Source: Nitrospinota bacterium (GTDB lineage: Bacteria > UBA8248). From it: 17,801 bases of DNA. The notes beneath the pieces were generated by a model. It did not search any database, was not told the origin of the DNA, and saw only the letters and a list, made by a program, of their open reading frames with translations. The translations under genes and the position numbers were made by a program. Position 1 is the stretch's first letter, and every line of letters begins with the position of its first letter. The stretch spans positions 1 to 17,801 of the forward strand of contig JAYGFR010000045.1 in NCBI GenBank assembly GCA_046581755.1, read 5' to 3'. Below are positions 10,823-16,037 of this stretch, piece by piece.

Positions 10823-11305
10823 ATGCCCCCCTATTACACGACGAAAGACAGCCTGGAGCGCATGAAAGAAAAGGTGGAGGGGATTCACCACCGCCTCAAA
10901 ACCGAAGTGGCCCAGGAGCTCGCCAAGGCGGCGGATTATGGAGACCGGAGCGAAAACGCCGAGTGGGATGCGGCCCTGGAACTCCAGTCCAACCTCAAGT
11001 ACGAGGCGATCCGGTTGATGGACAAAATTCAGGAGGCGGAACTCATCGAGGAATTGCCCATCGGCGGCGACCGCGTGACCATCGGTACCGAAGTGACCCT
11101 GCTCGATTTGGATAAGGATGAAGAGATCACCTACAAAATTCTCGGCGAGCAGGAGAGCGATTTCAAGAACGGAATCCTCTCCTTCCAGGCGCCCCTCATC
11201 CGCGGGCTTATGCAGAAAGAACCCGGCGATGAGGTGCTGGTGAAGCTTCCGGGCGGCACGCGGAATTTCGAAATCGTCGATGTGAAGAAAATCGATTTTT
11301 CCTGA
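10823..11305 (+). CDS. greA: Transcription elongation factor GreA/GreB family, 160 aa
   Basis: Acidic tip GDRSENAE, VTIGTEVTL, YKILGEQESD and GILSFQAPL..GDEV. Start reassigned to ATG 10823 behind a GAGAGGGAG RBS. Confidence 0.88.
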   Translation: MPPYYTTKDSLERMKEKVEGIHHRLKTEVAQELAKAADYGDRSENAEWDAALELQSNLKYEAIRLMDKIQEAELIEELPIGGDRVTIGTEVTLLDLDKDEEITYKILGEQESDFKNGILSFQAPLIRGLMQKEPGDEVLVKLPGGTRNFEIVDVKKIDFS

Positions 11306-11309
11306 GCAC

Positions 11310-12083
11310 ATGAAAAGGCCGGACCTCAGCGATCGTCTTCTTGCCTATCTCATCTTCGCGGCCGCCATCGTAATCGTTACCTGGTTCGCCCTCCTTCCGG
11401 ACCGTGCCCCGGCCTGGAAGCTGCCAGGAAGCCCGCGCCTTTACGTCATCGCCGTTGTGGGTTCGCTCCTCCTTTTGGTCTCGGTCCTGTTCGTGTTCGC
11501 CAAGCGGACCGGACGGTGGGGCTCCCCGGTGGGCTGGTTCACGGCCCATGTCGCGGCGGCCGCTGCGGGCAGCGTTCTCGTGGCGATCCATTCGGCGGGC
11601 TTTCTGCGTTACGTCCCGGCCCTCCTGCTGGTGGCCCTGCTGGGATTGGCCGCGCTCGGGGTCTGGGCGCGTATCCTGCTCTCCCGCCGGATATCGGCCA
11701 CCTTCGCCGAAAAGCACGAAAGCTTCGCGCCCGTCTCGGGTGCTGACCGGGAGCGCCTCGGGGCGATCATCCGGGAAAAAGAGGGCCTGCTCGAAAAACT
11801 CTCGCCGGGGGCGCGGGAAGGAACGTTTTCGCCGGCCCTGGGGCACTGGCTGGCGCGTCCGGGCCTGACGCGAGCCTATGCACGGCTCGTCCGGGAGGAA
11901 AGCGGCCTCCTGGGGACGCGGGGGATGGTCCCCGCCGCCCAGGCCTACTGGCGCCGGCTCCACATGGGACTGGCCGCGCTCTTCGTCCTGGGCCTCATCG
12001 GCCACATCGTCACGGTCACATTATTTGCCGGTTATGTCTCCGGGGGCGGAGTGGTATATTGGTGGCATCTCGCCGCGTGGTGA
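11310..12083 (+). CDS. Integral membrane protein, putative di-haem cytochrome b (ferric-reductase-like His pattern)
   Basis: About five hydrophobic segments. Two carry paired His 14 residues apart: WFTAH80...AIH94S and WRRLH218...IGH232I. A ~90-aa hydrophilic loop lies before the last helix. The gene sits directly upstream of the Fe-S/Mo enzyme. Confidence 0.7.
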   Translation: MKRPDLSDRLLAYLIFAAAIVIVTWFALLPDRAPAWKLPGSPRLYVIAVVGSLLLLVSVLFVFAKRTGRWGSPVGWFTAHVAAAAAGSVLVAIHSAGFLRYVPALLLVALLGLAALGVWARILLSRRISATFAEKHESFAPVSGADRERLGAIIREKEGLLEKLSPGAREGTFSPALGHWLARPGLTRAYARLVREESGLLGTRGMVPAAQAYWRRLHMGLAALFVLGLIGHIVTVTLFAGYVSGGGVVYWWHLAAW

Positions 12084-12124
12084 GTGGAACCGGCCCGGCA
12101 GCGCGCCGGGCAACGGAGGGCATC

Positions 12125-15097
12125 TTGGGCCAGCTATCCCTCATGATCGATCTGGAGCGCTGCTTCGGCTGCAAGAGCTGCGAGGCGGCCTGCAAGCAGG
12201 AGCACCGCCTCGGCCCGGGCGAGTACCGGAACAAGGTCGTCTGGCTGGGCGATGCCGATGAGGGCGGGCTCGATTTTCTCACGCTGACCTGCCAGCACTG
12301 CGAGCGTCCCGCCTGCCTCCGGGCGTGCCCGGTGAATCCCAAGGCTATCACCAAGGACCCCCTGACGGGGGTGGTCGAGGTCATCGAGGATCGGTGCACC
12401 GGCTGCGGGGAGTGTGTCATCGCCTGCCCCTACAGCGCGATGGGGTACGATCCGGCGGGACACCACGCCGTCAAGTGCGACCTCTGCCCGGACCGGCGCG
12501 CCGAGGGGCTGGAGCCTGCCTGCGCGAGCATCTGTCCGGGCCATGCCATTCAATTCGGGGAGCGGAGCAGCCTCCTCGATCGGGCCGCGCGCGAGGAGCG
12601 CACCGTTTGCGACCACGATCATTTTCTCCTGAAGCCCCAGACGATTTATCTCGAGCGCATCGGCGGCGGCGGAAACGCCGCGGGCGGAAATGGCGGCGGG
12701 GGCGGAAGTTCCGTCCATCCGCCCGCCGGGTTGGGACGGCGGCCCGCCTTCGCGGATGCACCCGGAGCCCAAAAAGTATTTGTGGAAAAGGGGCCCGCCT
12801 TTCCCTACGGCGAGGCCCGTGAAGATGCCACGCCGGATCGCGTCGAGGCGGGCGGATGCAACATCTGCTTCAATTGCTGCAGCGTGAAGTTTCATTTCCG
12901 GGGAAAGGAACTGGTGAAGATCACCGGCAACGAGGAGGACCCCGTCCTCAAGGGGAAGCTTTGCCCCAAGGCGCAGTTCACCCTCCAGATGTACCACAGC
13001 GAACACCGGCTCACCCGGCCCCTCAAGCGGGTTGGGAAACGGGGAGAGGGCCGCTTCGAGCCCATCGGCTGGGACCAGGCGCTGGACGAGATCGCAGATA
13101 AGCTTCGGGGCGTGCGCGAGAAATGGGGCGCGGAGGCCCTCGCCATGTTCGTTGGAACCCGGGCGGGCCTGATCACCAAAAGCGGCTACGCCCGCCTGTT
13201 CAGCCAGACGTGGGGAACACCCAACTTCGAGGGGACCGACCCCTTCTGCGCCTCGGGAAAATCCATCGCCTACGAACTCACCCAGGGTGCGGTCGGCAGC
13301 GGCAACAGCTACACCCCCGGCGACATGGGCAGCGCGGAGATGTACCTCTACATCGGGGACAATCAGGCCGAGACACGTCCGGTTTATTTCGGGATGATCA
13401 ACGACTGGCGAATCAAAAACCGCGCCCGGATGGTTGTCGTCGATCCCCGGCGCACCGTCACGGCCTCCAAGGCGGACACGTGGCTGCCCATCCGGCCGGG
13501 GACGGACATGGCCCTGGCGCTGGCCATGGCGGGCCATATTTTCGCGCGCAATTTGCACGATCAAAAATTCTGCGCGGAGTGGGTGCTGGGCTGGGAACTG
13601 TGGCGCGACTTTATCATCGAGAAGGGCTACACGCCCGAATGGGCGGAGCCGCTGACCGGCCTCCCGGCCGGGGATATCCGCGCGCTGGCCGAAGACGTCG
13701 CCCGCGCCGACGGGTGCGTCATCTTCGGGAGCCGGGGTCTGAACCAGCACACCAACGGTGCCCAGACGAACCGCGCCCTGATGTTCCTCGCCGCCATCAC
13801 GGGCAACTGGGGCCGGAAGGGCGGGACCTATTTCAACATGACGGCGGGGCCTCCCATCGCGCCGGACGCTCCCGGGGAGCGGAGGCCGAAGATCGCCAAG
13901 CCCCGCATTCGCCGGAGCCCTGCCGGCTGGATCGAGGCCATGCGGACGGGCGCCCCCTATCCCGTCCGGGCGCTGATCGCGTGCAACAATCCGATGGCGC
14001 AATGGCCGGGCCAAGACGATGCCCGCGAGGCTTTCGGGAGCCTCGACCTGTTGGTTCACATTGAATTATTCCAGAACGAAACATCGGCTTTCGCGGACTA
14101 CGTCCTTCCCGCCGCCGGGGGGATCGAAAAGGGCGAGGTCGGCCGGACGAACGACGACCGCCGCATCGTCTGGATCGATAAAATGATCGACCCGCCCGGG
14201 GAGGCCAAGCCGGACGGCTGGATCTGGATCGAGCTGGGCCGACGGCTCGGGTTCGGGGACGTGCTCAAGGAGGAGTACAAGGACCCACGCGTCTTCTGGG
14301 ATGAGATGTGTATCCAGAACGAGCAACTTCGGGGCGTCACCCAGAAGCGGCTGCACTCGGTCCCCTACCGCTGGGTGCGGTTTCCGGTGGCGAGCGAGGA
14401 TGCTCCCGAGCAGGAGACGCTCTATCTCGAGGGGACGACGGCGGTCGGCCAGCCCGAGGGACACCGTTTTCCCACCCCGAGCGGGAAGCTGGAATTCTGG
14501 ACCGAGGCGATGGAGGAGAAATTTAATGTCCTGGGCCTATCGGCTCTCCCCGAGTTTTACAGCGACCCCGAACAACTGGTCGATATGCCCTATGCCGAGC
14601 TGGCGCATGGCGATGACGAGTTGGGAGTGATCTCTCCGTTTCACAAAGCGGTGCCGACCGGGGCCTCGCCCTGCCGGATCGTTCCGGCCAGCGAAAACGG
14701 CCCGGGAGCGTCGGCCCGGGCCCGGGGCTTCGATACCGAACTCATCACCGGCCGCCCGCCCGCGCCCCATTTTCATAGCTGGACCCACTACTTCTGGCAG
14801 GCGCAGGAGATGTGGCCGGACCTGTTTTGCCAGATGCATCCCGAACGGGCGGAGCGCCTGGGGGTCGCGGACGGTGCCAGGGTGCGGGTGGAGACCCCGC
14901 GCGGAAGCATCGAGGCGGTCGCCTGGGTGAGCGCGGGCATCCGGCCGACGGCGGTGTTCATCCCCATCGGCTGGGGAGAAAAGCAGCCCTACCATCCCTG
15001 GCGCCCGGTCAACTTCCTGACCGACAAGAACCAGCGCGATCCGATCTCGGACCAGACCAATTTCAAGAGTCTGCTCTGCCGCGTATCGAAGGCGTGA
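12125..15097 (+). CDS. Fused 4x[4Fe-4S] ferredoxin (DmsB/PsrB-type) plus Mo/W-bisPGD oxidoreductase (DMSO reductase superfamily), ~990 aa
   Basis: N-terminal Cys groups CFGCKSCEAAC, CQHCERPACLRACP, CTGCGECVIACP and CDLC..PACASICP, then a Gly-rich linker. FS0 motif CNICFNCC..LCPK, RLTRPLKRVGKRGEGRFEPIGWDQALD, VVVDPRRT, PIRPGTDMAL, ETSAFADYVLPA and C-terminal LITGR..HFHS. Start chosen at TTG 12125 (GGAGG at 12115-12119); GTG 12080 is an alternative. Confidence 0.92.
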   Translation: MGQLSLMIDLERCFGCKSCEAACKQEHRLGPGEYRNKVVWLGDADEGGLDFLTLTCQHCERPACLRACPVNPKAITKDPLTGVVEVIEDRCTGCGECVIACPYSAMGYDPAGHHAVKCDLCPDRRAEGLEPACASICPGHAIQFGERSSLLDRAAREERTVCDHDHFLLKPQTIYLERIGGGGNAAGGNGGGGGSSVHPPAGLGRRPAFADAPGAQKVFVEKGPAFPYGEAREDATPDRVEAGGCNICFNCCSVKFHFRGKELVKITGNEEDPVLKGKLCPKAQFTLQMYHSEHRLTRPLKRVGKRGEGRFEPIGWDQALDEIADKLRGVREKWGAEALAMFVGTRAGLITKSGYARLFSQTWGTPNFEGTDPFCASGKSIAYELTQGAVGSGNSYTPGDMGSAEMYLYIGDNQAETRPVYFGMINDWRIKNRARMVVVDPRRTVTASKADTWLPIRPGTDMALALAMAGHIFARNLHDQKFCAEWVLGWELWRDFIIEKGYTPEWAEPLTGLPAGDIRALAEDVARADGCVIFGSRGLNQHTNGAQTNRALMFLAAITGNWGRKGGTYFNMTAGPPIAPDAPGERRPKIAKPRIRRSPAGWIEAMRTGAPYPVRALIACNNPMAQWPGQDDAREAFGSLDLLVHIELFQNETSAFADYVLPAAGGIEKGEVGRTNDDRRIVWIDKMIDPPGEAKPDGWIWIELGRRLGFGDVLKEEYKDPRVFWDEMCIQNEQLRGVTQKRLHSVPYRWVRFPVASEDAPEQETLYLEGTTAVGQPEGHRFPTPSGKLEFWTEAMEEKFNVLGLSALPEFYSDPEQLVDMPYAELAHGDDELGVISPFHKAVPTGASPCRIVPASENGPGASARARGFDTELITGRPPAPHFHSWTHYFWQAQEMWPDLFCQMHPERAERLGVADGARVRVETPRGSIEAVAWVSAGIRPTAVFIPIGWGEKQPYHPWRPVNFLTDKNQRDPISDQTNFKSLLCRVSKA

Positions 15098-15674: not shown

Positions 15675-16037
15675 CTACCGAAAAAAGACCAGCCGCACGC
15701 CGGCGATGATGGCAATGAGGCCCGACGCCCGGCGGATGGCCAGGCCCGGAAGGTTCCGCAGCAGGTAGGCGCCGATGAAGCCGCCCACGATGGCCCCGGC
15801 GCCAATTAAGGCGGCGTATCTCCAGTGCATGTTTCCGTGGCGGATGTTTTCGATGGAGGCGGCCCCGACGTTGAACAGGGAGGCCATCATGGAGATGGCG
15901 ACCACCTGCTGGGCCTTGATGCCGGGAATGAGAAAAAGGGCGGGAACCGTGATGATCCCCCATCCTACGCCGGTCGAGGCCTGGAGGGTTCCCACTACGA
16001 GGCCGAGTACGACCAAGCCCACTGCGTAGATGTCCAA
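15675..16037 (-). CDS. Half-size TauE/SafE (TSUP) family membrane protein, 120 aa
   Basis: GLVVGTLQASTGVGWGIITVPAL (cf. TauE G.GGG...VP), VVAISM, RHGNMHWRYA and GAIVGGFIGAYL. About four TM helices. TTG start with AAGGA RBS. Confidence 0.82.
   Translation of the reverse strand: MDIYAVGLVVLGLVVGTLQASTGVGWGIITVPALFLIPGIKAQQVVAISMMASLFNVGAASIENIRHGNMHWRYAALIGAGAIVGGFIGAYLLRNLPGLAIRRASGLIAIIAGVRLVFFR

Follow-up and report, generated by a model that had tools for sequence, protein, structure and literature searches.

A conserved two-gene module of a single-chain iron-sulfur molybdoenzyme and a likely di-haem b membrane anchor

Introduction

The stretch from position 1 to 17,801 of contig JAYGFR010000045.1 of a Nitrospinota genome (GCA_046581755.1), called the window here, carries two adjacent genes at positions 11310 to 15097. 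The first encodes a membrane protein (the anchor), and the second encodes a protein (the enzyme) in which a 16-Cys iron-sulfur domain is fused to a catalytic domain for a molybdenum or tungsten bis-pyranopterin guanine dinucleotide (Mo/W-bisPGD) cofactor. This locus raises the question of whether the two genes form one redox complex, and if so, to which family it belongs and on what compound it acts. A preliminary description had proposed a non-canonical module with an anchor outside the usual families. Here, we report that the module is a conserved variant of the complex iron-sulfur molybdoenzymes (CISM). We consider it probable that its architecture is that of a cytoplasm-facing, quinone-linked membrane molybdoenzyme, in which the fused chain sits on a likely di-haem b anchor; this degree of confidence applies to the architecture, not to the substrate.

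Results

The anchor and enzyme genes are conserved as a pair

A search of GTDB genomes with the enzyme gave 388 matching stretches, and the best 80 were examined for adjacency. The anchor was directly upstream of the enzyme in 76 of these 80 loci, and the other four were cut by a contig end, with 120 nt or less upstream. When metagenomes were searched with the anchor first, the enzyme was adjacent in 74 of 80 loci, and six were truncated. Among 30 loci of the window's own phylum searched in the same direction, the enzyme was within 400 nt in 26 and at 437–471 nt in three, and one locus ended too soon to be informative. Both genes were also present in all of 20 further regions, mostly alphaproteobacterial. 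The preliminary description had set a database search for adjacency across taxa as a check, and these three surveys (76/80, 74/80 and 20/20) bear it out over distant hosts. The hosts of the module matches were labelled as Nitrospinota metagenome-assembled genomes, Burkholderiales and Alphaproteobacteria, and identity within the module family was 53–85% across distant hosts. No third gene common to the module loci was found. One reading of the locus is that the genes are merely co-regulated neighbours and that the enzyme is soluble. A single locus (L235), in which one gene is inserted between the two, speaks for it, but near-perfect reciprocal adjacency over distant hosts and 40 neighbourhood types makes it highly improbable.

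Strong anchor matches were found in 35 of 51 own-phylum genomes (37 with two weak matches to paralogues only), in 15 of 301 genomes of one alphaproteobacterial order and in 5 of 401 of the class. Genomes of 2 Mb (G043–G046) retain the module. One host is in culture: a plasmid of Pseudohalocynthiibacter aestuariivivens RR4-35 bears the complete pair as genes G5B38_RS21590 and G5B38_RS21595, with an enzyme 53% and an anchor 38% identical to those of the window.

We aligned 111 non-identical full pairs. The four anchor His residues, the Cys residues of the FS0 cluster motif and C375 of the enzyme were invariant in all 111. The pairwise identities of anchor and enzyme were correlated (Spearman 0.90 over 110 pairs), to which host relatedness contributes. 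Because the features of the module are conserved, chance can be excluded as their explanation.

The enzyme is a single chain without an export signal

The layout proposed earlier, namely two H-x13-H helices in the membrane gene, a 41-nt gap and a 16-Cys::Mo/W-bisPGD fusion, was confirmed by the sequence. The gap runs from the anchor stop codon (TGA, 12081–12083) to the TTG at 12125, which is most likely the start of the enzyme; an alternative in-frame GTG at 12080 overlaps the anchor stop. The catalytic subunit and the four-cluster protein of CISM are thus both present, and they are fused. All 16 Cys residues (enzyme residues 13–137) were kept in every untruncated alignment row, and a Gly-rich linker follows them ahead of the FS0 motif. 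Pfam placed Fer4_11 at residues 50–147, the FS0 domain at 245–289, Molybdopterin at 295–706 and Molydop_binding at 873–982. PF00384, PF01568 and PF04879 were above cut-off, so that the features of the MopB/DMSO reductase superfamily are present, and Foldseek matched the enzyme to MopB family structures with E values of about 1e-44 to 1e-32. The AlphaFold model of the fused chain had low confidence over the four-cluster domain. In the active-site loop, C375, K379 and D/E372 were each kept in 111/111 pairs. R346 was considered as a substrate-binding residue and set aside, as FdhF carries an Arg at the same position.

Fusion is the norm of the family: Fer4 domains were found in 119 of the top 120 enzyme homologues (the exception was labelled partial), and both motifs lay within one open reading frame (ORF) in 135 of 140 loci; among the five exceptions, L057 was split across frames. 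The reported lack of an export signal also held. The first Cys is residue 13 and the highest 19-residue hydropathy was 1.33, and therefore there is no room for a twin-arginine (Tat) signal and no hydrophobic segment. A Tat-like motif was found in none of 139 leaders of homologous enzymes.

The enzyme is outside the families tested

The best solved relatives of the enzyme were PsrA, FdhF-type formate dehydrogenases, acetylene hydratase and NapA, all of them distant, and no curated cut-off was reached among the 25 best NCBIfam models (of 60 matched). The top solved match was PsrABC/PhsABC of T. thermophilus (PDB 2vpw; E 1e-64 for the catalytic domain), which likewise has a Cys ligand and FS0, but the window enzyme was only ~26% identical to it in the structural alignment, and the PhsA profile gave 257 bits against a cut-off of 694. 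The Psr anchor is of the NrfD type, and no NrfD match was listed for the anchor or its homologues. Psr is described as periplasmic, with separate subunits, in passages of PMC10100899, whereas the window system is fused, Tat-less and equipped with a four-His anchor.

The signatures of the other families were not found either. For formate dehydrogenase, C375 was followed by A, S, G or D in 111/111 pairs and never by His, the Arg of LRGQNN was absent, and the score was 305 bits against 666. For NapA/NasA, the motif was C-A and not C-M, and the scores were 212 against 1100 bits (NasC) and 148 against 904 bits (NapA). The Asp ligand of NarG and the Ser ligand of DmsA, TorA and BisC were not present, the ligand position being Cys.

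Cytoplasm-facing systems offer parallels in layout. SoeABC and SreABC have a three-part alpha/beta/anchor design with separate subunits and a DmsC/NrfD-type anchor, and NarI, the anchor of NarGHI, has five helices. NarGHI differs from the module in its Asp ligand, its dedicated NarJ chaperone and its separate subunits, and no NarI Pfam match was obtained for the anchor or its homologues. According to Table 1 of PMC10100899, SoeABC and bacterial SreABC are likewise cytoplasmic, Cys-ligand MopB enzymes, and act on sulfur compounds. In NarGHI, as covered in passages of PMC10609526, a MopB enzyme and a four-cluster subunit face the cytoplasm, and their membrane anchor is a cytochrome of the b type that holds a proximal haem.

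Single-chain Fe-S::MopB fusions are also known, in FdsA/FdhF-type formate dehydrogenases and in ActB (passages of PMC10100899). The N-terminus of FdsA is of the hydrogenase [2Fe-2S]/[4Fe-4S] type, whereas that of the window enzyme is of the DmsB 16-Cys type and stands ahead of an intact catalytic domain; in ActB, a catalytic-type subunit that lacks the cofactor is combined with its electron-transfer subunit. Gene order is not fixed in this enzyme group, as in ttrBCA. The earlier interpretation was overstated in part, since cytoplasm-facing membrane molybdoenzymes (Table 1 of PMC10100899 has NarG, SoeA and bacterial SreA) and such fusions have precedent, but the fused, Tat-less pair itself is real. 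An N-terminal DmsB-type fusion combined with an anchor of this family was absent from passages of PMC2500031, and no description of the pair was found in the open literature; subscription journals and supplements, including the supplementary trees of PMC10100899, which may hold members, were outside the scope of this search. By the tests made on the sequence, the module would work like a CISM and yet is outside the Psr/Phs, formate dehydrogenase, Nap/Nas, Nar and Dms/Tor/Bis families.

The nearest unfused relatives found were on Nostoc and Streptomyces plasmids. They were ~33% identical to the enzyme, had no beta domain and bore SRRGF twin-arginine signals. As the unfused relatives are Tat-bearing, this unrooted comparison suggests that the fusion replaced the export signal. 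In the loci L199:9812-12337 and L198:9911-12427, the Tat-bearing, alpha-only sister molybdoenzymes were 65% identical to each other and shared the motif DVGPVCND. The Streptomyces relative is encoded in an acr3/arsO/arsC cluster, and its substrate may be arsenic or antimony. The same architecture could accordingly be imagined to work on arsenic or antimony species in the module, and an ArsC-family gene flanks one module locus. We regard this as quite doubtful: the acr3/arsO/arsC association was one cluster, the Nostoc sister had no annotated ars genes within 10 kb, and ars genes were not recurrent among the neighbours scanned.

The anchor resembles a di-haem cytochrome b

Hydropathy and the AlphaFold model (predicted local distance difference test score, 85.6) placed five helices of membrane length at about residues 8–31, 42–67, 73–94, 101–123 and 216–238 of the anchor, with a soluble helical insert of ~90 aa between helices 4 and 5. 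R121, K157, E170 and E197 of this insert were invariant in the 111 pairs. The mean number of Lys and Arg residues was 22.6 on the predicted inside and 3.4 on the predicted outside, and by the positive-inside rule the topology is presumably N-in/C-out. With this topology, both His-bearing helices would run outward, and thus H80 would pair with H218 near the cytoplasmic face and H94 with H232 near the outer face. By analogy with NarI or FdnI, the anchor would hold one proximal and one distal haem, and the Fe-S domain of the enzyme would dock on the basic cytoplasmic insert.

The conservation of two His pairs on two membrane helices is as expected of a di-haem cytochrome b. The four His residues were kept among 74 homologues down to ~20% identity, whereas H179 and H253 faded. 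DUF4405 matches were obtained for 105 of 112 anchor homologues at E ≤ 1 (best, 1.2e-5) and for 42 of 62 at E ≤ 0.1; they were weak. Cytochrome b561 matches were found in 6 and ferric reductase matches in 3 of 62 family members. The likeness of the anchor to the DUF4405, MsrQ, PepSY, cytochrome b561 and ferric reductase cytochromes consists of four central His residues in a helical bundle, with weak similarity of profile or fold. DUF4405 proteins were shown to bind haem b (passages of PMC11334425). They have six helices, whereas the window anchor has five with the 90-aa insert and is partnered with a molybdoenzyme. In a wide structural search, haem-b bundles made up 8 of the top 20 matches (4D2, CybB, cytochrome b6, b561, Dcytb, FdnI, SpNOX and STEAP4), a likeness of the model that is suggestive only.

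Several results weigh against a haem-binding anchor. The window's own anchor had no significant Pfam match, and the cytochrome matches of its homologues were all weak. The structural Z-scores (7.5–9.2) tied with those of unrelated bundles such as polycystin and talin, and polycystin-2 ranked first. Foldseek gave no match of the anchor model in the PDB at E ≤ 0.001. On balance, the anchor likely binds two haems b.

A profile search of PDB sequences with the anchor returned nothing significant. None of 7994 candidates was a longer, fused form of the anchor, a weak indication that such forms are lacking.

Distant paralogues of the anchor were found in the window's own genome (contig C399) and in genome G038. 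Their His pairs align with those of the anchor (HH probability, 89% and 95%, respectively), and they sit between a gene for a cyclic nucleotide (cNMP)-binding/Fe-S protein and multihaem cytochrome genes. For these reasons the anchor is placed as a sub-branch of a wider, unnamed, redox-associated four-His family. The earlier claim of an anchor outside the usual families thus stands in part: the protein is not of the NrfD/DmsC/PsrC type and resembles a two-haem cytochrome b, but it is not isolated. The cluster on C399 (L111:3270-10432) groups the distant anchor paralogue with genes for an FNR/2Fe-2S-like reductase, a c554-like cytochrome, a cNMP-binding/4Fe-4S protein and a multihaem cytochrome. 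The cluster has the look of an uncharacterised conduit for electrons from NAD(P)H to the periplasm, and a similar gene set occurs in G038 (L112).

In an alternative reading, the anchor would exchange electrons across the membrane with a periplasmic partner rather than with quinone, in the manner of cytochrome b561, MsrQ and ferric reductase domains. Its structural matches to CybB, b561, SpNOX and STEAP4 and the multihaem cytochromes adjoining its paralogues agree with such trans-membrane transfer, and His pairs on helices 3 and 5 with a 13-residue spacing resemble those of ferric reductase/NOX domains. No periplasmic partner gene was conserved beside the module, and we hold this alternative to be unlikely. 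We continue with the quinone-linked complex as the preferred reading.

Features of the locus and its neighbourhood

The coordinates of the features are listed in Table 1.

Table 1. Positions in the window of the module features and of the adjacent upstream gene
Feature	Position	Strand	Remarks
Membrane anchor gene (gamma subunit)	11310..12083	+	257 aa; five membrane helices and N-in/C-out topology predicted; likely a di-haem b protein
H80-x13-H94, helix 3, predicted haem ligands	11547..11591	+	111/111 pairs; H80 in 72/74 and H94 in 71/74 distant homologues
Soluble, basic insert (residues 121-216), predicted to face the cytoplasm; candidate site for docking of the Fe-S domain	11670..11957	+	mean of 17.3 Lys + Arg in alignment A1
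H218-x13-H232, helix 5, predicted haem ligands	11961..12005	+	111/111 pairs; 70/74 and 64/74 distant homologues, most misses being gaps
Shine-Dalgarno GGAGG (12115-12119) and TTG start (12125) of the enzyme gene	12115..12127	+	close homologues begin at the equivalent place
Fused beta::alpha gene	12125..15097	+	990 aa, no Tat signal
16-Cys DmsB/PsrB/NrfC-type domain, four predicted [4Fe-4S] clusters	12161..12535	+	Pfam Fer4_11; 2vpw_B E 1e-23
FS0 cluster motif C245-x2-C248-x3-C252...C280	12857..12964	+	PF04879; 111/111 pairs
Active-site loop T-[DE]-P-F-C375-x3-K; C375, predicted Mo/W ligand	13235..13261	+	aligned with the Cys of PsrA and FdhF
greA/greB-family gene, lineage-specific neighbour, possibly co-transcribed, outside the module	10823..11305	+	ends 4 nt before the anchor start

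The window neighbours scanned were greA, a class IV aminotransferase, hydantoinase/oxoprolinase genes, a GyrI-like gene and a half-length TauE gene. As described earlier, no TorD or NrfD/DmsC gene was present among the neighbouring ORFs of the window; a TorD/NarJ-family gene occurs elsewhere in the same genome (contig C266). The greA, class IV aminotransferase, hydantoinase and GyrI-like genes, thiG/trmB/mutY and acetate-CoA ligase were considered as members of the module and rejected as lineage-specific neighbours only. The greA-anchor linkage recurred in most of the 18 loci of that neighbourhood type. The half-length TauE/SafE gene (15675–16037, minus strand, 120 aa) is convergent with the module, and short TauE-like genes recur there in the same genus. 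A TOBE-domain gene is directly downstream of the module in four loci. Low-depth metatranscriptome contigs cover parts of both module genes, but they show nothing firm on expression because flanking DNA is also covered. A promoter and terminator scan gave results at chance level.

Three other gene clusters were recorded. A plasmid catabolic island of a cultured Paracoccaceae strain (L197:12995-34466) surrounds the pair with amidohydrolase, Rieske, FNR-type reductase, betB, YeiH, desaturase and BisC-type molybdoenzyme genes and a betaine-type ATP-binding cassette (ABC) transporter; its amidohydrolase, Rieske and FNR-type reductase set presumably resembles the amidohydrolase-related oxygenases. 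At L222:5771-14645 and related loci, TauD, the module, coenzyme A (CoA)-transferase III and a cysteine-dioxygenase-family gene occur together, a set that we take to be reminiscent of mercaptopropionate/sulfinate catabolism. In the window's own genome, contig C140 (L115:898-5904) carries an alpha gene that is Tat-bearing and formate dehydrogenase-like, together with a beta gene; a membrane gene recognised by eye as NrfD-like lies further along.

Candidate substrates

The substrate was approached through the neighbourhood types and the enzyme relatives. In Table 1 of PMC10100899, the cytoplasmic Cys-ligand enzymes that act on sulfur substrates are SoeA and bacterial SreA. A sulfur-related or BisC-type gene is found beside the module in 11 of the 40 neighbourhood types, TauD-family genes being present in seven and BisC-type genes in four. 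Cysteine dioxygenase, sulfatase, ComA, Sat or YeiH flank a few of the 40. About two TauD neighbourhoods would be roughly expected from the copy numbers, compared with the seven seen, and catabolic genes cluster anyway.

The following results weigh against a sulfite substrate. The other 29 neighbourhood types had neither a sulfur-related nor a BisC-type gene. The neighbouring TauD genes were mostly not orthologous (~28–39% identity), and hosts carry 7–35 TauD copies, or 74 in G053. TauE was rejected as a clue to sulfite, being found in 2 of 40 neighbourhood types against 3–12 copies per genome. Xsc was above cut-off in none of 51 own-phylum genomes, and the window's own genome already holds AprA and sulfite-oxidase-family genes. 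Because the TauD excess has to be weighed against these nulls, oxidation of sulfite, sulfinate or a similar sulfur(IV) compound is our guess at the single most likely reaction, with only a modest chance of being right. As a separate observation, the 74 TauD-family matches of G053 (the genome of L029) lie in an alphaproteobacterial genome of 4.6 Mb, and 22–35 were found in four of five other hosts checked.

The same complex could instead run as a quinol-fed reductase, like NarGHI or SreABC, of a cytoplasmic oxyanion or an S- or N-oxide, and it would be electrogenic if quinol were oxidised at the outer haem. PsrA as the top solved relative, the BisC-type matches flanking 4 of 40 neighbourhood types and a Crp/Fnr-family regulator directly downstream in one betaproteobacterial group are consistent with this direction. 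Against it, several flanking clusters consist of oxygenase-type catabolic genes, and in Table 1 of PMC10100899 the metal ligand is Ser in the characterised S-/N-oxide reductases and Asp in Nar, in contrast to the Cys found here. We regard a reductase as a rather unlikely reading.

Catabolic neighbours also fit an organic substrate that is hydroxylated, dehydroxylated or hydrated by the same architecture, as in acetylene hydratase-like clades. Acetylene hydratase is among the closest structures, a cluster named for it is among the atlas neighbours, an invariant acid residue (D/E372) is beside the Mo-Cys, and the pair of the cultured carrier lies within a catabolic island (amidohydrolase, Rieske, betB and betaine-type ABC transporter). 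No single catabolic pathway, however, recurs across the 40 neighbourhood types, and the FS0 motif has Phe at the position of the catalytic Asp of acetylene hydratase, which we take to be Asp13. An organic substrate is a minority possibility. The RR4-35 strain is cultured and carries the pair on a plasmid, and the substrate is thus directly testable.

Discussion

In the preferred architecture, the five-helix anchor would receive the Tat-less fused chain, with its Mo/W-bisPGD site, FS0 and four predicted Fe-S clusters, on its cytoplasmic insert. NarGHI and SoeABC serve as models for a wire along which electrons would pass from Mo through FS0, FS1–4 and the two haems into the quinone pool. If sulfite or sulfinate from organosulfur catabolism is the substrate, it would be oxidised by oxo transfer from water, as in SoeABC. 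Cofactor binding and quinone coupling are both inferred.

We propose tentatively, as a possibility still short of probable, that the module represents a MopB family not yet described, namely a quinone oxidoreductase of two subunits that faces the cytoplasm. It would have originated from a Tat-exported catalytic subunit that swapped its signal for a fused four-cluster domain, with a cytochrome b taken over from a family of electron conduits that is itself uncharacterised. Widespread bacteria of freshwater, the sea and sediments would then use it for a respiratory reaction that has gone unrecognised. If so, this reaction would be a second, independent sulfite:quinone oxidoreductase or new oxo-transfer chemistry. 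MopB enzymes define the compounds that a microbe can respire, and a conserved module outside all the families tested marks a gap in the known reactions of common aquatic bacteria. The module would also open a first route to the function of a wide family of four-His membrane proteins.

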